Source of the DNA: an uncultured Gammaproteobacteria bacterium
GTDB taxonomy: Bacteria; Patescibacteriota; Microgenomatia; UBA10105; UBA927
Assembly (NCBI GenBank): GCA_964349125.1
Contig: CAYGFH010000006.1
Location: 11,121 to 75,120, forward strand
Direction of reading: 5' to 3'
Length of the DNA: 64,000 nt
The notes under the pieces were generated by a model. It ran no database searches. It was not told where the DNA came from and saw nothing but the letters and a program-made list of their open reading frames with translations. Shown piece after piece: positions 1,072-23,412 of this stretch. The first letter of the stretch is position 1. Every line of letters begins with the position of its first letter. The translations under genes were made by a program, and so were the position numbers.

Positions 1072-4026
1072 TTATTTTAATATGTTTTTAAGGAATTGTC
1101 CTGTCGAGGAATTAGCAATTTTAGCGATATCCACCGGTGTTCCCGTAGCAATAACTCTCCCACCGCCATCTCCACCCTCCGGTCCCATATCTATGATCCA
1201 ATCAGCATTTTTGATGATATCGAGATTGTGTTCGATCACCACAACTGTGTTTCCCAACACAGTGAGTTTATGGAGGACATGAAGCAGTTTTTCCAAGTCA
1301 GCAAAATGAAGTCCCGTCGTTGGTTCATCAAGTATGTACATGGTATGTCCGGTTTGACGTCTGTGTAATTCAGTAGCAAGTTTCACACGCTGGGCTTCGC
1401 CTCCCGAAAGTGTTGTTGCCGGTTGTCCCAGATGCATATAGGATAATCCGACTTCTTTTATAACCGCTAATTTCTCTGACAAGAGCGGATGATGGCTAAA
1501 AAATGACACCGCTTCCTCGACGGTCATGTTGAGCACCTGGGCAATGTTTTTATCCCTATAGAGTACTTCAAGTGTTTCCGCATTATACCTGGATCCATGA
1601 CACACTTCGCATGTCACATACACATCGGACAAAAACTGCATCTCAATTTTTCGCTGTCCTTCCCCTTCGCACGCTTCGCACCGTCCGCCTTTGACGTTAA
1701 ATGAAAATCGTCCTGATTTATACCCCCGTGTGCGAGCTTCTGATGTCAGGGCGAACAAATCCCGGATCTGGGAAAATATACCGGTATAGGTGGCAGGATT
1801 GCTGCGGGGTGTTCTGCCTATAGGAGATTGATCTATAAGGATCGTCTTATCTATCTTTTCTGTGTTTTCAATGGAGTCATGAGCTCCAGGTCGTTCTTTC
1901 ACCAATGGATTAACCTTTTGTGCCAGAGCGCGGTAAAATGTCTCTACTATCAGCGTGGACTTCCCTGAACCGGATACTCCGGTGATACAGATAAATTTTC
2001 CGAGCGGGAATGTGACATCAATATGCTTCAGATTGTTTTCGCTGGCTCCGCGCAGTATTACGCTCCCTTTGTCCTCATCCTGTTTTACAGTGACTGAAGG
2101 ACGGTTTATCTTCTTTTTTTCCGTAATGTACGGACCGGTAATTGAGTGCTTGTTTGCCAACACTTCAGCGAGTGTTCCCTGGGCGATAATATTGCCGCCG
2201 TGCTCACCTGCGCCAGGACCAAAATCGACCAGATAATCAGATTCTTCCATCATCTCTTTATCATGCTCAACAACGATCACTGAGTTACCCAAATCTCGCA
2301 GTGCATGCAATGTTTTGATCAATTTCGTATTATCTCTCGGATGAAGCCCAATTGATGGCTCATCAAGCACGTACAGCACTCCTGACAATCCGGATCCTAT
2401 TTGAGATGCCAGCCGTATGCGCTGCGCTTCCCCTCCTGCCAGTGTTGCGGCGCTGCGGCCGAGTGAGAGATATTCAAGACCGACGCGCTCTAAAAATGTA
2501 AGCCGTGAGATAATTTCTTTTATAATCGGTTTTGACACCTGCTGTTCCTGAAAATTTGTAAGTGCACGATCTCCGGACTCCAGACTTTTCACCCAGACAA
2601 TGGCATCTGAGATAGACAGATCGGTGACATCAGCAATAGAGAACTTGTCTATCGTAACGGTAAGCGTATCCTTTTTCAGCCGTTTTCCATTGCAGGAGGG
2701 ACATGTCTCGCGGCGCATGTACTTCTCTATCTCGCCTCGCACGAACTCAGATTCAGTCTCAGATAATCGCTTTTTGAGTTCAGGAACAATGCCGATAAAT
2801 TGCTCTTCAATGGTGGTTTTTGCCCCGAACCGGTTTGTTCCTTCAACCCTATACTGTTTATCCCCTGTGCCATACAAAAGCACTTTCTTTTGTGCCTCGG
2901 TCATCTTATTGAGTGGTGCTCTCGGATTAATGCCATGATCTTCGGCAACCTTCATAACGACACGGGAGTACCAGGTGTCGTGCATGAATGTTCTGGCAAA
3001 TGGCAATATACCACCCTCAGTCATGGATAATTCTGGAGAGATAATAAGCTGTGCATCCACAGTGAGTACGGTACCGATACCACTACATTCCTCGCACGCA
3101 CCATGCGGAGAGTTAAACGAGAAAGAGCGTGGTTCAATTTCAGGAAGTGAGATATTACACACGGGACAGGCAAATTTTTCCGAAAATATGTGCTCGGATA
3201 ACTCTTTTGGTTTTTCTGGGAATACAAATCCCGCATCATTGACGACAACTCCTGTGACCAATCCATCCGACAGTGTCAGAGCCTGCTCAACGCTGTCGGC
3301 AACACGGGATCGCAGTTGGGTATACGGATCAGATGTCTCGGCTTTTCCGGTAAGTTTTTTCAGTTGCAATGCGTCTATGGTAAACCTGTCGATCACGGCA
3401 TCGACTGTGTGTTTATTTGTTTTAATAAGACCGATATCTTCATTTATGCCAAAAAAGTATCCGTCTACGCGTACCTGCCTATAGCCCTTTGTCCTAATAT
3501 TATCAAACAAATGTACAAACTCTCCTTTACGGTCTCTCACAATCGGAGACAGGATAAGCATCCGTACCATCTTTTTTCCGGAAGACAGTTCTGCTCGAGC
3601 CAATTCGAGTAATTGGTCTACTATCTGCTGCGGGGAGAGTCTGCTGACTTCACGTCCACAGATTGAACAATGAGGATGACCTACCCGAGCAAATAATAAC
3701 CTGAGATAATCATAGATTTCTGTAACTGTACCGACTGTCGATCTGGGGTTGTGTGATGTGGATTTCTGATCAATGGAAATACTGGGAGACAGCCCTTCGA
3801 TACTGTCCACATCTGGTTTATCCATAATGCCCAAAAATTGGCGCGCATACGAGGAAAGGGATTCGACATATCTTCGTTGTCCCTCAGCATATATCGTGTC
3901 AAATGCGAGAGATGATTTTCCGGAACCTGACACACCGGTAAATACCACCAGCTTATTTTTCGGCAATTCAAGCGAAATATTCTTCAGATTATGTTGTCTG
4001 GCACCTTTGATGATTAATGTATCCAT
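1072..4026 (-). CDS. uvrA: excinuclease ABC subunit A (UvrA)
   Basis: 984 aa. N-terminal [53 protein letters not shown] is the UvrA signature. It has two ABC ATPase modules (second Walker [11 protein letters not shown]) and zinc-finger cysteines (CPVC, CEAC). Confidence 0.95.
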
Positions 4027-4082
4027 AATAAACGCGAAAAACGCCCTCGGATGGTCCCGGGGCCATGGACATTATACCATGG

Positions 4083-6092
4083 CTATTTTGTAATCTTTGC
4101 AATATAGTCACGAATCTGTGCTGCAAGTTCGAAATCCAAATCTCGTCCTGCAGTCTTCATTTCACGGGTAAGAGTCTCAACAAATTTCTTCTTGTCTGAT
4201 GGCGTCATGCCATCGACGTGCTCCTGGTCGATTCCCAAGAGGTCAGAAACACGCGTTTCCTGCACCACTTCCCCCGGGTCGTGGTCAGTAAGCCTGTCAC
4301 GAATCGGTTTTTGAATGCTCGTAGGGGTAATACCATGTTTTGCGTTGTATGCAAGCTGAAATTCTCTCCGCCTTGTCACCTCAGCTATGGCGAATTTTAT
4401 GGAGTCAGTTTGCCGATCCGCATATAAAATAACTTTTCCCTCCTGATGCCTGGCAGCCCGACCCATGGTTTGTACCAAACTGGTGCGACTTCGTAAAAAT
4501 CCTTCTTTATCCGCATCGAGAATCGCGACAAGAGACACCTCAGGCAGATCCAAGCCTTCACGAAGTAGGTTGACTCCAACCACAACATCGTACATACCAC
4601 GCCTGAGATCGGCGAGTCTCTCCGTCCGCTCGAGTGTTTCTACATCTGAATGGAGGTACTGCACTTTGATGCTGTGCCCCATCAGATAGTCTGTCAGATC
4701 TTCCGCCATCTGTTTGGTCAATGTAGTCACGAGCACCCGCTCATGACGCGCGACACGAAGTTCAATTTCTTTATATAAATCGTCGATTTGCCCTTTGATC
4801 GGACGCACATCGACGAGAGGGTCTACCAATCCTGTGGGCCGAACAAGTTGTTCCACGACTTTACCCCGAGACAACTCGTAGTCGGCCGGTGTTGCAGATA
4901 CATAAATCGTCTGAGGCTGGACGCGCTCGAATTCTTCACTGCGCATGGGGCGGTTATCCAGTGCACTTGGGAGCCTGAATCCGTAATCAATAAGTGTTTG
5001 TTTACGGCTCCTGTCTCCGTTATACATACCGCGAATCTGCGGAACACTCATATGGGATTCATCAATTACCATGAGCCAATTGTCACCGGATGCGGCTTTA
5101 AAGTAATCCATCAGGGTAAATGGCGGATCTCCTGGTTTTCTGCCATCAAAATACCGTGAATAATTTTCGATGCCGTTTACATATCCCATTTCCTGGATCA
5201 TTTCCAAATCATATGTGACACGCTGTTGTATTCTCTGTGCCTCGATAAGTTTGTTTTGCTTTTTGAATTTTTTCACCTGGAGATCACGGTCTTTTTCTAT
5301 TTCTTGAAATACTTCCTTGTGTTCTTTGGGATCAGTCATGAAGTGCTTTGCAGGGTAAATAACAGTACCGGGCATTTCCGAGATAGTCTTTCCGGTTAAT
5401 GGGTCAATCTCAGAAAGTTCACGCACCAGGGTCCCCTCCATAACGATGCGGATAGAGGTATCTTTGTACGCTGGGAAGACGTCTATACTGTCACCACGCA
5501 CACGGAATGTACTGCGATGAAACCCGAAATCATTGCGCTCATACTGCATTTGGATAAGTCTCGCAAAAATACTCTCGCGGGAAAGATGCATACCGGTTTT
5601 AAGCTCCAATACGAAATTTCCGTATTCTTTGGGTGATCCGATGTTATATATACACGAAACGGAGGCAACGACAATCGTGTCACTTCGCGTCAGAATATTT
5701 GTGGTAGCGGCTAATCGCAATTTATCTATTTCATCATTTATCTGTGTTTCCTTTTCTATAAATGTATCGGTATGAGGGATATACGCTTCCGGCTGGTAAT
5801 AATCGTAGTAGGAAACGTAGTATGATACCGCATTGTTTGGAAAAAAATCACGAAATTCCTGATAGAGTTGTGCTGCGAGTGTCTTATTGTGGGAGATAAT
5901 GAGTGTTGGCCTCTGGATCTTTTGGATCACATTGGCGATTGTGTATGTCTTACCGCTTCCCGTCACACCCAACAGCACCTGCTCGTGCTCTCCTTTTTCG
6001 AGGTTAGAGCATAGAGCACTGATGGCCTCCGGCTGGTCACCCGTCGGTTTAAAATCGGCTTTGAGTTCAAAAGGATGAGTTGTATGTGTCAT
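4083..6092 (-). CDS. uvrB: excinuclease ABC subunit B (UvrB)
   Basis: 669 aa. It carries the helicase Walker A GVTGSGKT, the UvrB-typical [14 protein letters not shown] segment, and a C-terminal UvrA/UvrC-interaction coiled coil. It sits immediately upstream of uvrA on the same strand, so it is probably a uvrBA operon. Confidence 0.95.
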
Positions 6093-17975: not shown

Positions 17976-19739
17976 TTATCTAAATTTCCACACCGATCCG
18001 AGTGTATCAGTATACACCAGCGGATACTGTTTCGTTAAGGCATTCGAATCACAAGGCCGAATATTTGGTATGGCAGAGTCTGAATAACATACGATATACG
18101 CAATGGAAGTTTCCTGTATACCGGCAGTACCTGAAAGCACTGCCTTCTGCACAACAAGAGCCGGGTCAGGGCTACCACCATATGTATATATATATTGCGT
18201 CCTGCCAGTATACGTCTTTATGCCTGCGATATTTATCGGATCGTATATTTCCCCATTCGTCAACACAATATCTCCGGGTTTCATATGTTCAGAGACTGCC
18301 TTCAGGAGTGGATGGTGTGCATAATCTACTATCCTGGCGAATACATCATTTTTTAACACAAAAAAATTTATAATACCTGAGATACACAAGAAAAAAATTA
18401 ACACATATGCCAGCATAGTCCGCCATACATACTTAAGCACAAACAATACGCAAAATGTCATGCATAACTTCCAGAGTATGAAAAACTTGTGATCATCAAA
18501 TACATTGCGAACACTGATATGAAAGACATTAGGAAGCGTAAAAAGGAGAAGCGAATATAACGCAAGCCATCTGAATTTTTTCCCGGAGTATAGGATCCCG
18601 AGTACAGAGATTGGTATCAGTAATCCCGTATTTCTGAACCAGAATGTAAACCATGATAGTACTGTAAGAGGGACTACAATAAAGCCTGGTGCAAATAGTA
18701 TTCCGCTTTGTGAATGCATGAGAATTTCTAATACCTTTGGGGCAGACACACCAATCGCCAGCAATAGTGTGGGAACACTGAGGCGTCGTGAAAGCACGAC
18801 GAGCAAACAGGCCGCTAGAAATACATGCACATGCCAGTAACAGAGAAACCCCAACACGATTCCATCAAATATTCTTCGACTTTTTGGAGTATACAAGCTG
18901 TACTTGAGATGCTCCGGTATAAACCAGAGAAATGCAGCGATCCCGAAGAGCAACTGTCGTTGATTCAGATACGTATTTAGATTCCAAAAAACCTCAAAAG
19001 AATCCGAATACCTATTCGTGTGATAGAGTGCAGAAAACCAACTGGCCGGATTGACATGTTCAGTTACAAACTGAAACCAAAGTAACGTTTGATCGGAAAA
19101 AAATATAATAACTCCGACACATGCAAATACCCAAGACCGCTTAATCGTATACGCGAACATATACACTGATGTGCCGATGCTCGCAAATGCAAGCGCGCTA
19201 ATGAGATTAAGTGCCAGGTCGATCCTCAAACCTAAATATTCCAACAACCCTGCGTAGAAATGAGTCAAAAAGTAATAAGACCCACCTGATTGTGAAAAAA
19301 ACGGTATAGTAGCTGGATAATTATTCCCGAGAGAGAATGATCGAATAAATGGAATATGAGCTCCGAAATCCATATACGTATTGGACGATACTAACAGGCT
19401 ATTCGAGGTCGTGTCGTATGAGAATGAGTGGGCAAATATATACCAGCCAAACATCGCCATCGCCAGGTATACTGTGACTTCTCTACTCGAAAGATGGATC
19501 GGCCATCTCTGTCGGGTTGCTATCTGATACCCGTATATGAAACTTAGAACTACCATATAACACAACAGCGACACGGCAAGATCATGAGTGATATACGACG
19601 TCAGTATAAAGAGAGGAGTAAGTGATAGAATCGAACCAAGTATATAGAAATACCCCAGTCCATTTCGAACTTTGCCTAATAATCCAAGTATTAGCACACC
19701 ATTGAAGCAAACACTCACCAAAAAAAGTAGCGCAAGCAT
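17976..19739 (-). CDS. polytopic integral membrane protein, possible GT-C fold glycosyltransferase
   Basis: 587 aa. The N-terminal ~460 aa are extremely hydrophobic with more than 10 predicted TM segments, and there is a ~120-aa C-terminal soluble domain. This is the ArnT/PMT-like architecture. There is no specific motif I can verify. Confidence 0.4.
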
Positions 19740-19743
19740 ACAA

Positions 19744-20925
19744 TTATGTCTTTGGCAATAAATATCGTCTCCCCTTCAATTTGTCAGGTAGTAAACTTTC
19801 GTTTGTGTACATCTCATATCCTTTGCCGTATTCCAAGTTTTTCATCAGTTTGGTCGGAGCATTTCGAATCATAAGTGGTATGGGGAGGTTTCCAAACTGC
19901 TTAACATCGGCAAGGGCCGCAAAATATGCATCATATGCACTTCTATCTTTCTTGGCGGTACACAGATACACAACCCCGTGCGCCAAACTGATTTGTGCTT
20001 CAGGATACCCGATTTTATTGCAGGCATCAAAGACCGCATTGGCGACCACCAGTGCCGTAGGCTGTGCAACACCAATGTCTTCAGAGGCAAAAATAACCAT
20101 GCGCCTCGCAATAAAGAGAGGATCCTCTCCCGCAGATGTCATACGCGCCAGATAGTAGAGGGCCGCATCAGTATTGCTTGCGCGCATTGATTTGATGAAA
20201 GCGCTAATTGTATTGTAGTGTTCCTCCCCCGACTGATCATACTGGAGCATTTTTCTCTGTGCTGCATCTTCCATGTGTTGAACTGTGATCGTGTTTTTTC
20301 CTGCAAATTGAGCGGCAATTTCCAAAATGTTATAGAGACTGCGTCCATCTCCATTGGCAGCCTCACGCAAAAATGCCTTTGCAGTGTCTTCTATCTTCAT
20401 ACCCAAATGCGATACGCCCCGATCAATAAGCAGATCCAACTCTTCATCAGTTAGTTGCTTGACCACTACTACACGGCAACGGGAAAGAAGTGGAGCTATG
20501 ACTTCAAATGACGGATTTTCCGTCGTGGCACCTATAAATATGACTGTCCCCTTTTCCACATGCGGCAGCAGGGCATCTTGCTGCGCCTTGGTAAATCTAT
20601 GTATCTCATCCAGAAAAAATACCGTTTTTTTTCCCTGCGCCAGTCGATTTTCTGATTCTTTGATAATACGGCGAACATCCGCGAGTGTCGACGTGACGGC
20701 ACTGTGTGATTCAAAATGCGCAGCGGTGATTGTCGCCACCAACTCAGCAAGCGTCGTTTTTCCCACACCCGGCGGCCCCCAAAAAATCATCGACGGCAAA
20801 AATCCCGTGGATAAAAATTTACGCAGTATGCCGTCTTTTCCGACCAGATGCGACTGCCCTATCACCTCATCGAGTGTTTTTGGACGTAGCTGTTGAGCAA
20901 GTGGTTTGAGAACAGGATTATACAT
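19744..20925 (-). CDS. rarA: replication-associated recombination protein A (RarA/MgsA AAA+ ATPase)
   Basis: 393 aa. It has the Walker A motif GPPGVGKTTLA, a Walker B FFLDEIHRF, and a C-terminal MgsA helical domain. Confidence 0.9.
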   Translation of the reverse strand: MYNPVLKPLAQQLRPKTLDEVIGQSHLVGKDGILRKFLSTGFLPSMIFWGPPGVGKTTLAELVATITAAHFESHSAVTSTLADVRRIIKESENRLAQGKKTVFFLDEIHRFTKAQQDALLPHVEKGTVIFIGATTENPSFEVIAPLLSRCRVVVVKQLTDEELDLLIDRGVSHLGMKIEDTAKAFLREAANGDGRSLYNILEIAAQFAGKNTITVQHMEDAAQRKMLQYDQSGEEHYNTISAFIKSMRASNTDAALYYLARMTSAGEDPLFIARRMVIFASEDIGVAQPTALVVANAVFDACNKIGYPEAQISLAHGVVYLCTAKKDRSAYDAYFAALADVKQFGNLPIPLMIRNAPTKLMKNLEYGKGYEMYTNESLLPDKLKGRRYLLPKT

Positions 20926-21556
20926 TTAAATCATAAAAATAATCATCGGTATTATGCTGTTGTTTTTGCACGTTTTTAATTCGCCTGATTCGTTTAAACG
21001 TTTGCTCAATCTCAGCTAATAGCATTTTATCTTCGGTTCCAAAGGGTCCAAAGTACACCTTGCCACCATGCTTTGTGATACGCAACAACTCATCAAGTGC
21101 ATACATGTGTTCTGTCCACCCATTACTGTAATACCAGCTTGCATAAATGTCGAATGTCGCATCAAACGATCCATTTTTAAACGGAAGCTCAGGGCTTAAG
21201 CCGGCCAGTAAATTTTTCTTGTATTCAATCGGTCCTTTTCTAAACGTGTACATAGAAAAGGCCGGATTTATACTGCATACACGAAGGTCGCGTCGAATGT
21301 CGTGAACTTCTCGTGCAAATGCGGCGTATACACATCCAACATCACATACTATGCCATTTTGGGGAATTGGGGAAAGCATTTCCTTCATCGACTCATATCC
21401 CATAAACTCGTTGCGTGGCGTTCCATCCTGTTGTATTTGCGGTATCCTCGCTAACAGTAACTTTTCACTCGCATACCCCTGACCCACTGGCAGTATCTCG
21501 CTCATGACGTAATTATATCCCATAATACTATTATTACAAAACATTAAATTCTTCAT
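20918..21556 (-). CDS. putative class I SAM-dependent methyltransferase
   Basis: 212 aa. The IVCDVGCVYAAF glycine-rich loop is consistent with methyltransferase motif I. It lies between dinB and rarA with 4-8 bp overlaps. Confidence 0.45.
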   Translation of the reverse strand: MKNLMFCNNSIMGYNYVMSEILPVGQGYASEKLLLARIPQIQQDGTPRNEFMGYESMKEMLSPIPQNGIVCDVGCVYAAFAREVHDIRRDLRVCSINPAFSMYTFRKGPIEYKKNLLAGLSPELPFKNGSFDATFDIYASWYYSNGWTEHMYALDELLRITKHGGKVYFGPFGTEDKMLLAEIEQTFKRIRRIKNVQKQQHNTDDYFYDLNV

Positions 21557-22860
21557 ATGCTCGCTTTTCCAAACGCGATCCTGTCCATGACTTTTTGACT
21601 GGAATCTATCATACGAGCAGGTACGATAGTATACTTCCCATATTTTTCCGATAACTGGTCAATAGTGCGTGTCACACATTCTTTTTTCACATCGTACTCC
21701 AAAAGTGATTGTTGCGTATACAAATCCCGTGTTAACTTGCCACACGTCACCCCCAGTATTCGAATGGGCAGGTCAGGTGCACTCAAAAGAAGAGACTTGC
21801 TGTATGAAAAAAAATCTGCGTCAGCGTACAGTGGTCCTGCCAATTGTTTTTGTGTATGCCAAAAATCAGAGTAACTACTATACATGGCCGAAACACCGAT
21901 GCTGTGAGCCATACATCCTGCGGCTCGAAGCCTGCTGCCCATTTTTACCACCAATTGAGACAACACCTGCCAAAGTTTGGGATCAGACGGAGGCAGTGCT
22001 CTGCCTAGCGCATGGGAATGCCCGAATGATTTTTGCTCAGAGGCACTCACACCCGCACCAAATGAGGTATACCGTGATCCATCTTCGTACCCGTGAAGGC
22101 GCATCCACCAGTGACGTCCGACTATAGAATGAAGGGCACGCTCCAGTGTCTTTGCATCAGACATGAGCAAGGACATTGGCGTATAAATACCACCAATCCG
22201 CAGACGTGTGGCAACTCCGGTTTTAATGCCGCAAAAATCCTCAAGCCGCATTGTAGAAAATGTTTTTGCAATCGTCTTCCCGGTGATCATATCCAGTCCG
22301 TCCGGCTTGTGGAGCCCTGAGGCGATTTTAGATAAATATCGATTGGGAGCAATCCCTATAGACACCGTGATCCACTCTCCTATTTCGCGGCGTATGCGTT
22401 GTTTTATCTCTCTGGCTATCAGGAGCATGGCATGTTCTGTCTTTTCATGCTCAGTTGCGTCCGGAGCAGACATGATTCGCATCTGGGTGTCCAATCGTGG
22501 CGTCTGTGCAAAATCCACAACCATTTCATCTATGGATTCCACACGTACGTTGCACGAATAGGATTCAAGGATTGCCAGAAGCGCACGGTTTATGTATCTG
22601 TATTTATTTGGATCAGGAGCAAGCACCTCGACAAATGGGCACCGTGCCTTCGCCTCACTCACCCGCATACCTGTGTCTATGCCTATTGCCTTGGCTTCCC
22701 GCGAAGCGGCGAGGATACACCCATGGTCTTCCGCATAGGCAGCAACAACCGTCGGTTTCCCACGCAGTCGTGGATTCGCCTGCTGTTCAATCGTCGCGAA
22801 ACAGGAATTGATATCAATATGCATGATGGTAGGAGGAGATGGATTAAAACATATATTCAT
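21553..22860 (-). CDS. dinB: Y-family DNA polymerase (DNA polymerase IV / DinB-ImpB-UmuC family)
   Basis: 435 aa. The N-terminal motif MHIDINSCFATIEQQANPRLRGKPTVV contains the catalytic aspartate, and a little-finger domain follows. The true start is probably the internal Met at about 22824 (MHIDI...). Confidence 0.9.
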   Translation of the reverse strand: MNICFNPSPPTIMHIDINSCFATIEQQANPRLRGKPTVVAAYAEDHGCILAASREAKAIGIDTGMRVSEAKARCPFVEVLAPDPNKYRYINRALLAILESYSCNVRVESIDEMVVDFAQTPRLDTQMRIMSAPDATEHEKTEHAMLLIAREIKQRIRREIGEWITVSIGIAPNRYLSKIASGLHKPDGLDMITGKTIAKTFSTMRLEDFCGIKTGVATRLRIGGIYTPMSLLMSDAKTLERALHSIVGRHWWMRLHGYEDGSRYTSFGAGVSASEQKSFGHSHALGRALPPSDPKLWQVLSQLVVKMGSRLRAAGCMAHSIGVSAMYSSYSDFWHTQKQLAGPLYADADFFSYSKSLLLSAPDLPIRILGVTCGKLTRDLYTQQSLLEYDVKKECVTRTIDQLSEKYGKYTIVPARMIDSSQKVMDRIAFGKASI

Positions 22861-22937
22861 GTCATTGCGAGCGATAGCGAAGCAATCTTATTTCATCGTA
22901 ACCGGATTGCCACGTCGCTTACGCTCCTCGCAATGAC
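22861..22937. repeat. ~77-bp imperfect palindromic element with perfect 11-bp terminal inverted repeats (GTCATTGCGAG / CTCGCAATGAC), abutting the dinB start
   Basis: Left arm 22861-22871, right arm 22927-22937. The inner arms are also partly complementary (AGCGAAGCAATC versus RC AGCGACGTGGCAATCC). Confidence 0.5.
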
Positions 22938-22946
22938 AACCAGCAT

Positions 22947-23195
22947 TTACCCATCAATTTCCAACAATTTCCACGAGAGTGTTTCTGTATTGAAACGCAA
23001 CTTAAACTGCATAGTGCCGTCGGTCACCTGGAACATATGAAGTAATACTCGCCCCTCACGGACGGTGTGATGGAGTCCGATTTTTATCATCATGTAGCGC
23101 ACTCCCCGCCAGTGTACCACCCACGGATAGGCCACTTTTTTCACATGATTAGACAATAAATCTACCGAAACTGATTCATCTATTGTTGTAACCAT
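22947..23195 (-). CDS. small hypothetical protein upstream of dinB (possible YolD-like polymerase accessory)
   Basis: 82 aa, co-directional with dinB and immediately 5' of it. The beta-rich C-terminus (IKIGLHHTVREGRVLLHMFQVTDGTMQFKLRF) could form a small barrel like YolD/UmuD'-type partners. This is position-based inference only. Confidence 0.3.
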   Translation of the reverse strand: MVTTIDESVSVDLLSNHVKKVAYPWVVHWRGVRYMMIKIGLHHTVREGRVLLHMFQVTDGTMQFKLRFNTETLSWKLLEIDG

Positions 23196-23412
23196 AATAT
23201 CTTTATATAAAAATTAACCCGAATGTATCTATTGCATTCAGTTTTGCATACCGACTCTGAAAAACAAATCTAAATTAGATAGATATATACTAAGAAAACG
23301 TATGTTTCATCGAAGTTTTCTCAGTGCATATGTATCATAAAATACCCGAATAAAATTATAATAGATCGAAAATAATACGAACAATATCAAATACTGTATA
23401 CTATTATTCCGT

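Follow-up and report, generated by a model that had tools for sequence, protein, structure and literature searches.

A probable imuB-C–dinB translesion module with a REP-like inverted repeat at its gene junction in a Gottesmanbacteria-like bacterium

We analyzed a 64-kb stretch of contig CAYGFH010000006.1 (hereafter the window) from a Gottesmanbacteria-like bacterium of the candidate phyla radiation (CPR), in which dinB, the gene for a Y-family DNA polymerase, is preceded on the minus strand by a small gene for an 82-aa protein, with a long palindrome between the two. We consider it probable that the two genes form an imuB-C–dinB translesion module and that their junction was interrupted by a doublet of repetitive extragenic palindromic (REP)-like units, which would modulate the coupling between them. 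The finding is a new example of known things, the ImuB-C–dinB module and the repeat, and not a new dinB switch. It entails three corrections at the level of annotation, which concern the codon at which dinB starts, what the small protein is and what kind of element the palindrome represents. The features of the junction are listed below.

22947..23195, minus strand: predicted gene for an 82-aa stand-alone ImuB-C-like (DUF6504-related) protein, assigned by homologues, family profile, AlphaFold (AF2) model and synteny
22939..22946, minus strand: 8-nt spacer from the stop codon TAA (22947-22949) of the small open reading frame (ORF) to the foot of the hairpin, read from the sequence
22905..22938, minus strand: REP-like unit A, long form, TGTC-ATTGCGA-[GGAGC-GTAA-GCGAC]-GTG-GCAAT-CC, delimited by unit parsing and family anatomy
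22888..22904, no strand: variable central loop of the doublet, unconserved in the family alignment
22860..22887, plus strand: REP-like unit B, short form, TGTC-ATTGCGA-[GC-GATA-GC]-GAA-GCAAT-C, which on the mRNA strand ends on the A of the dinB start codon
21553..22860, minus strand: Y-family polymerase gene dinB, 435 aa, ATG at 22860, matching Pfam IMS/IMS_C and the NCBIfam Pol IV models
22825-22860, minus strand: N-terminal extension of dinB, MNICFNPSPPTI, which precedes MHIDI and has a coding signature in relatives

The palindrome and its repeat family

The interrupted palindrome is 79 bp long (22860-22938) and lies at the minus-strand junction between the 82-aa gene and dinB. Its termini are perfect over 12 bp (TGTCATTGCGAG/CTCGCAATGACA, at 22860-22871 and 22927-22938) with 55 nt between them, and its final base on the mRNA strand is the A of the dinB ATG at 22860; a second in-frame ATG, that of MHIDI, is found 36 nt downstream, at 22824. 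The initial annotation, made from the letters of the window, had described here a long imperfect palindrome of about 77 bp with 11-bp termini that reached the dinB ATG and would form a very stable stem. The element and its contact with the ATG are borne out, both measures fall inside the somewhat larger actual ones, and the stem is indeed very stable: as RNA the palindrome folds at -33.9 kcal/mol (z = -4.8), which 0 of 200 shuffles equaled, and as DNA at -23 kcal/mol (z = -6.0). By our own estimate about 0.6 inverted repeats of 12 bp are expected by chance in 64 kb at spacings of up to 150, and we therefore judge the palindrome to be non-random by its inner pairing and its exact match to a large repeat family, not by the 12-bp arms alone. 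No second copy with up to two mismatches per unit was detected in the window, nor was any other long interrupted palindrome found there. Rfam covariance models run against the region gave no match overlapping the palindrome, even at E <= 10, and literature queries with its sequence returned only unrelated papers, apparently through primer matches.

The pattern GTCATTGCGAG-N30-60-CTCGCAATGAC, for which we estimate a chance expectation well below one, matched 92 stretches from viral contigs and, among the matches listed, more than 120 from genomes. The family unit follows the pattern (C/T)GTCATTGCGA...GCAATC, and the 11 bp of its termini are identical in many phyla and viral contigs. Hosts include Alphaproteobacteria (Bradyrhizobium, sphingomonads, Rickettsiales), Gamma- and Deltaproteobacteria, Bacteroidota, Chloroflexota, Planctomycetota, Cyanobacteria and the CPR groups Berkelbacteria and Saccharibacteria, and Helicobacter canis prophages carry copies as well. 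As DNA, the palindrome had initially been thought to be a large operator or a miniature inverted-repeat element. The many copies in other genomes and viruses, next to a single one in the window, speak for the miniature repeat, and the operator finds no support, as the conserved cis-element lies elsewhere (see below).

Across 215 unique copies the arms share the plan (C/T)GTC - ATTGCGA - variable core - GNN - GCAAT - CC(AG). GTC is preceded by C or T in 214 of 231 copies, the window having TGTC at both ends, and the flanking bases are C..G in 141 and T..A in 37 of the 231. The consensus tail is GCAATCCAG, and the window units, with CCG and CTT, fit its CCA only in part. The core comes in a short form, GCGNAGC (in the arm core GCGNAGCG, N is A/C/G/T in 66/63/27/25 cases), and in a long form that is a variable hairpin. 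With G.A pairs allowed, complete hairpins can be drawn for 114 of 141 distinct cores, compared with 21.5% of shuffled cores; 39 different core stems occur, and their loops are mainly GAA, GCA, GTA and GGA. The core of unit A contains GCGTAAGC, a GCGNNAGC mini-hairpin motif, and unit B contains GCGATAGC, an exact GCGNNAGC motif. Mini-hairpin DNA of the types d(GCGNAGC) and d(GCGNNAGC) is known for its extraordinary stability from the work of Hirao and colleagues (reviewed in PMC13037366), and REPs tagged with CGTC, including Neisseria dRS3 and Rickettsia RPE-4 and RPE-6, have been described (Di Nocera et al., 2013; PMC3733652). Judged by sequence, the palindrome appears to be an inverted pair of CGTC/TGTC-tagged REP-like units, one copy of a cross-phylum family. 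We likened the family to the CGTC REPs by their published description and not by the consensus of the four families of that study, in whose text and supplements the sequence of the element is not printed.

In a crude assignment of gene context, family copies lie between tandem genes in 47 cases, convergent genes in 24 and divergent genes in five. They are mainly downstream of genes; the median distance from stop codon to element is 27 nt, and in 18 of 47 cases it is no more than 15 nt. The arms are oriented without bias with respect to transcription (11 versus 17), which speaks against a family-wide RNA function tied to one strand. The 212 family loci gave no general association with dinB (1 of 212) and no recurrent transposase-like neighbor, apparent phage structural genes being the only ones to recur (judged from the sequences, without a Pfam scan). 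Nor was a REP-associated tyrosine transposase (RAYT) identified beside these 212 loci; the ORFs of the window were not scanned for Y1 transposases. By eye, no consistent direct repeat marks a target-site duplication, and the flanks extend the palindrome by one base (C..G or T..A). We rejected a miniature inverted-repeat transposable element of a DDE transposon, since no target-site duplication was seen by eye. Two viral contigs (L057, 3052-3440, and L094, 4415-4803; L-numbers are label numbers of the stretches and loci compared, relatives and others) carry three tandem doublets at a spacing of about 156 bp, like a cluster of the bacterial interspersed mosaic element type, and L033, L044 and L064 each hold three family copies within 14 kb.

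The small protein and the start of dinB

The small ORF is a genuine, conserved gene: its 82-aa product has 45 close homologues at 60-85% identity, the named ones from Candidatus Gottesmanbacteria, and a search with the family profile retrieved 633 cluster representatives, all of about 80-110 aa. In the family alignment W29, G40, H42, G48, H53, D59 and W75 are invariant, and R30, R46 and R49 are conserved at 90% or more. The AF2 model is all-beta, with seven strands and a predicted local distance difference test (pLDDT) score of 96.4, in agreement with the beta-rich ORF first described. Among 46 family members, 22 gave weak matches to DUF6504 in a Pfam scan, below threshold, with a best E of 0.0012. 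One protein, P0189, which the family profile retrieves at E 4.7e-12, scores 25.4 bits and thus passes the DUF6504 gathering cut-off of 24.2. With P0189 as query, tblastn led to a locus on the Geobacter anodireducens plasmid pSD (E 1e-8), where the match is an 84-aa gene between lexA and dinB that overlaps the start of dinB by 4 nt. Aligned by hhalign, the family profile and the pSD small protein match over their full length (81 columns) with 95% probability and an E of 3.7e-8.

A lexA-imuB-C-polY operon has been published for Geobacter (Timinskas and Venclovas, 2019; PMC6511836), and a stand-alone ImuB-C superfamily, with Geobacter sulfurreducens GSU0042 as type example, was defined by Aravind, Anand and Iyer (2013; PMC3765255). 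ImuB-C is described there as mostly beta-strand, with a conserved C-terminal Trp and basic residues and with DinB as its commonest partner, and it was proposed to recognize damaged DNA and recruit polymerases. By these links the 82-aa protein is a predicted member of the stand-alone ImuB-C family and, as such, a proposed recruiter or partner of Y-family polymerases. The term 'DUF6504' had no match in the literature that we searched. The pSD cassette lexA-imuB-C-dinB (L304, 3371-5462) has an apparently split dinB frame, with ORFs of 288 and 128 aa, and no coding sequence is entered for dinB there in the plasmid's (incomplete) PLSDB gene table.

The initial annotation had compared the small protein to the YolD-like or UmuD'-like accessory proteins. 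It was right about the type, an accessory protein of a Y-family polymerase, and about the synteny, and wrong about the family. Neither YolD (PF08863) nor Peptidase_S24 was among the Pfam matches of the 46 family members at E <= 1, a profile search of the PDB with the small-protein family gave no match, and Foldseek with the model found nothing significant in the PDB (best E 0.34) or in BFVD. A YolD/UmuD' identity thus finds no support in Pfam, PDB profiles or Foldseek against the PDB.

As for dinB, the proteins of relatives carry a conserved N-terminal M(D/E)FNPxPPT(I/V) ahead of MH(I/V)D. Over the nine codons of this extension, the mean entropies at codon positions 1, 2 and 3 are 0.85, 0.44 and 1.50 bits (43 distinct sequences from relatives), several relatives have no Met at the MHIDI position, and in the window ATG 22860 is the sole start codon upstream of FNP. 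Because the extension is conserved as protein, because some relatives lack the Met at MHIDI and because no other start lies upstream, we place the start at 22860. From this comparison of sequences, dinB is predicted to begin at ATG 22860 with a clade-specific FNPxPPT(I/V) extension. The Met at MHIDI had initially been preferred as the start, and a 423-aa automatic gene call on the same contig begins there as well; in view of the nine codons conserved as protein in the 43 relatives, this start is rejected as too far downstream.

Insertion history and possible effect on coupling

In about 70 of the 80-88 relatives' loci (Gottesmanbacteria-like, CPR) the small gene is directly followed by dinB, usually with an overlap. 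The ATG of dinB precedes the end of the small gene in most relatives, most often giving a spacer of -11 nt (ATGGATTTTAA); values of -4, -8, -14 and -17 occur as well. The spacer in the window is 86 nt. Since the genes of most relatives overlap, the palindrome of the window is a derived insertion, and a comparison by eye suggests an insert of about 100 nt that contained the palindrome and provided the small gene with a new TAA and dinB with a new ATG.

The full palindrome is present in the window and the L103 contig and in L101/L224, where the right end of the copy is degenerate, and L096-98 retain only the left unit. It is absent from L099, L102 and nearly all more distant relatives. The left flanks of the copies in the window, L101/L224 and L096-98 look homologous by eye, which suggests one shared insertion event. 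Two further CPR loci carry members of the same family. In L268 a separate insertion lies at the same junction, with a small protein that is only 49% identical and with different flanks and promoter type. In L262 (10740-10811) a doublet lies in frame within dinB without disrupting the ORF, and codes for about 25 residues (LSLRDRSDGEAISRDRHAPSGLAMT) of a polymerase loop.

How dinB is translated bears on what such an insertion may do. A Shine-Dalgarno-like sequence precedes 7 of the 46 crude gene calls in the window. Many genes, often first genes, have a TATACT/TATAAT-like -10 box 7-15 nt before their ATG, which suggests leaderless mRNAs or mRNAs with very short leaders, and operon-internal genes overlap by 4-8 nt. 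Upstream of dinB there is neither a Shine-Dalgarno site nor a -10-like box, so its translation most likely depends on ribosomes that finish the small gene. We propose that the repeat family propagates, or used to propagate, as a hairpin substrate of single-stranded DNA, as REP/HUH-type elements do, and that the doublet would be a rare, essentially fixed relic in the window genome. In the operon mRNA it would form a stem of about -34 kcal/mol whose foot sets the stop codon of the small gene, 8 nt upstream, beside the dinB AUG. dinB would still probably be translated by ribosomes finishing the small gene, with the hairpin, most likely a tolerated insertion, lowering or tuning the coupling and not acting as a switch, and the hairpin may also stabilize the upstream message. 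If there is damage-responsive control, it would act through the conserved promoter motif that precedes the small gene.

In E. coli, REPs affect the stability of the upstream mRNA, and they affect translation when they lie about 15 nt or less from the stop codon. The element could likewise be a 3′ hairpin of the small-gene mRNA, serving as a partial terminator, a stabilizer or a ribosome-stalling REP and giving a high ImuB-C:DinB ratio, as in some E. coli operons. A gap of 8 nt separates it from the small-gene stop codon, the predominantly downstream position given above holds for the family at large, and for REPs a location mostly 3′ of coding regions and a role as RNA elements have been reported (PMC3733652). 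However, the 8 nt past the stem are UGAAUAUA, with no U-tract of an intrinsic terminator, and the promoter/terminator scan did not flag the site; full termination would moreover silence dinB and at least seven downstream genes, for which no promoter of their own is evident. We regard this explanation as unlikely.

The stem had initially been taken to sequester the dinB start as a conserved regulator or operator, which does not agree with the lack of the palindrome and the overlap of the genes in most relatives. A reading in which the hairpin is a selected, dinB-specific RNA regulator that occludes the start until a signal (ribosomes, temperature, a protein or an RNase) opens it, uncoupling the synthesis of the polymerase from that of the small protein, seems to us improbable. 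It would account for a very stable stem with the AUG at its 3′ foot upstream of a gene that has no Shine-Dalgarno or promoter-like sequence, and for the retention of the element or its 5′ half at one site in three sublineages (small proteins 72-80% identical) while the interior diverged. The purine-rich arm also comes first in all three independent CPR events, and enlarged spacers of other lineages bear spacer-spanning hairpins of unrelated sequence. Yet most relatives have no spacer at all, the enlarged spacers of L099 and L243 are without significant structure, L096 retains one arm, and the sequence is that of a generic cross-phylum repeat. Since the family has no orientation bias with respect to transcription, the shared orientation in the three CPR events is not meaningful, and any palindrome inserted at an overlapping junction automatically spans stop to start.

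Enlarged spacers were also seen in L102, L225, L230, L235, L238, L262 and L293, where unrelated hairpins, most of them AT-rich, reach from stop to start with z of about -2.5 to -7 (the one in L225 is weaker, z -1.0), and in L099 and L243, which show no significant structure. The spacer-spanning hairpins are compatible with selection for proximity of stop and start, and they are equally expected if palindromic mini-elements simply insert into such junctions. L099 and L243, together with the half element of L096, indicate that a hairpin is not obligatory at the junction. A hairpin-bridged coupling, in which the junction tolerates only insertions that fold the stop beside the AUG and in which the REP doublet and the unrelated hairpins preserve and tune re-initiation, is rather unlikely in our estimation; if true, such a bridge would be a way for overlapping coupled genes to survive insertions.

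We return to the imuB-C–dinB module interrupted by a REP-like doublet, the reading that we prefer, against which several points weigh. On the side of the protein, the 82-aa protein of the window itself has no match in Pfam (E <= 0.1), DUF6504 included, or in NCBIfam; its assignment to ImuB-C is built on a profile and on intermediate-sequence links, and equating Pfam DUF6504 with ImuB-C is our own step. On the side of the repeat, no mobilizing enzyme was identified, and the window has one doublet in 64 kb, whereas REP families are usually multi-copy. The published CGTC REPs have a stem of 8-9 bp starting with AT and a loop of 4-5 nt (PMC3733652), sizes that the family does not literally match. 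Under nearest-neighbor energies single REP units fold no better than shuffles, and for this reason the proposed hairpin of each unit is based on the covariation in the family and on the published mini-hairpin chemistry. As to location, the three independent CPR insertions all lie within the imuB-C/dinB module (p of about 0.02), which a purely neutral view fails to explain, and no convincing units were found outside the module in 546 kb of relatives' loci; the module may possibly be a preferred target of a cross-phylum mini-hairpin repeat. Finally, the effect of the hairpin on coupling is something that we infer from the sequence.

Promoter region, operon and comparison with known systems

Upstream of the small gene, two further segments were delimited.

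23336..23381, minus strand: conserved imuB-C/dinB promoter region, with the direct-repeat-like motifs TTCGTATTATTTTCG (23367-23381) and TTCGGGTATTTTATG (23336-23350)
23196..23335, minus strand: segment of about 125 nt, specific to the lineage, that separates the small-ORF ATG from the promoter motif, absent in L096/L098

The upstream regions of relatives align on TTGAC-N12-14-TTCGGGTATATTTTGG; beyond it, away from the gene, there is often another repeat of similar sequence. A search of 526 kb of related loci that tolerated up to one mismatch found the motif 51 times, in 48 cases no more than 160 nt upstream of the small ORF. In L096/L098, a relative with 80% identity, the motif lies 8 nt before the small-ORF ATG. 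In the window the lineage-specific segment intervenes, with an imperfect inverted repeat (23223-23288) inside it and a degenerate motif copy (23209-23223) at its end; together with the palindrome, this segment indicates that both junctions of the small gene received insertions in the window lineage. A copy with one mismatch, at 4024-4038 on the minus strand, overlaps the start codon of uvrA. The genes uvrB (4083-6092) and uvrA (1072-4026) lie in tandem on the minus strand, and a perfect extended -10 box, TGGTATAAT, precedes uvrA by about 45 nt. The alignments suggest that this motif, and not the palindrome, is the conserved control element of the operon, and the motif may be a candidate operator/promoter of a LexA-independent damage regulon in this clade.

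That the palindrome might instead have arisen as an inverted repeat by chance, or be the DNA operator of a dimeric dinB repressor, is in our view scarcely conceivable. Its perfect 12-bp arms would suit either, and we estimate that a single inverted repeat of this length is not far above chance in 64 kb. The same termini and inner GCAATC blocks recur, however, in hundreds of unrelated genomes and viruses, and the z-scores of the folds exclude chance. The element is also placed downstream of the operon promoter, between coding regions, and the conserved cis-motif of the operon is elsewhere.

Downstream of dinB, two genes follow directly.

20918..21556, minus strand: class I methyltransferase-like gene (Pfam Methyltransf_11), which overlaps dinB by 4 nt
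19744..20925, minus strand: rarA/mgsA AAA+ ATPase gene (Pfam MgsA_C, AAA_assoc_2 and AAA), which overlaps the methyltransferase gene by 8 nt

The overlaps of 4 and 8 nt fit a single transcription unit, and the same-strand string continues beyond rarA with genes for a 587-aa membrane protein and a NUDIX protein and with holA-like, pgm and pgi genes. In L096, L099, L101 and L102 dinB is directly followed by rarA, with no methyltransferase gene. Since relatives run directly from dinB to rarA, the methyltransferase and 587-aa membrane-protein genes are lineage-specific inserts. The operon of three DNA-damage genes (dinB, the methyltransferase gene and rarA) that had been postulated is thus operon-like in its overlaps, with the methyltransferase gene as a member that the operon of relatives does not contain and that nothing links to DNA damage. 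The 587-aa membrane-protein gene (17976-19739) has no Pfam match and is inserted in an otherwise conserved order, dinB-rarA-NUDIX-holA-like-pgm-pgi.

These results would extend the ImuB-C–DinB translesion module to CPR bacteria, where DinB has a clade-specific N-terminus and where the promoter motif, which is very specific, may be the mark of a damage regulon independent of LexA. They also point to a CGTC-type REP family with GCGNAGC mini-hairpin cores and identical termini, common to many phyla and viruses, and raise the question of what enzyme or process maintains this uniformity.

Among known systems, the imuB-C–dinB operons are similar in having a beta protein of about 80-100 aa, with a C-terminal Trp and basic residues, encoded immediately upstream of a DinB-type polymerase and often overlapping it. 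Unlike the Geobacter operon, the window has no adjacent lexA and has a clade-specific promoter motif instead, and unlike in known imuB-C operons, the DinB partner bears the extra N-terminal FNPxPPT segment. The host also differs from the published ones, as it belongs to the CPR, a group that is not named in PMC3765255 and PMC6511836. Like the 82-aa protein, YolD (YqjX) and UmuD' are small and beta-rich, and their genes immediately precede that of a Y-family polymerase; no similarity to them in sequence or fold was detected, however, and the polymerase of the window is of the DinB type whereas theirs are of the UmuC type.

For the palindrome, the CGTC REPs are similar in their 5′ CGTC/TGTC tag, in a stem that starts with AT (ATTGC/GCAAT) and in a CCA-type tail. 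They too are mostly inverted dimers able to form a larger hairpin, lie between tandem or convergent genes, in some cases in frame inside genes, repair genes included, and have no dedicated transposase. In contrast to them, the stem of the family unit is composite, with five Watson-Crick pairs, tandem G.A pairs and a GC-clamped GNA/GNNA loop or a longer variable hairpin, and the range of the family goes past the five phyla of PMC3733652 in taking in CPR, Chloroflexota, Planctomycetota, Cyanobacteria and viral contigs. REPINs, which are mobilized by RAYT (HUH Y1) transposases (Bertels and Rainey, 2011; PMC3116915), likewise consist of two inverted REP units that form one long hairpin around a short spacer, with a conserved tetranucleotide at the foot. 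They differ in that the tag here is (C/T)GTC and not GTAG, in that REPINs and RAYTs are lineage-specific and the present family is cross-phylum, and in its very low copy number here. Finally, mini-hairpin DNA is matched by the exact GCGNNAGC in both window units and by the commonest family cores, GCGAAGC, GCGCAGC, GCGGAGC and GCGTAGC, although the examples known from nature, which comprise single-strand replication initiation sites and a phage promoter, are not dispersed repeats.

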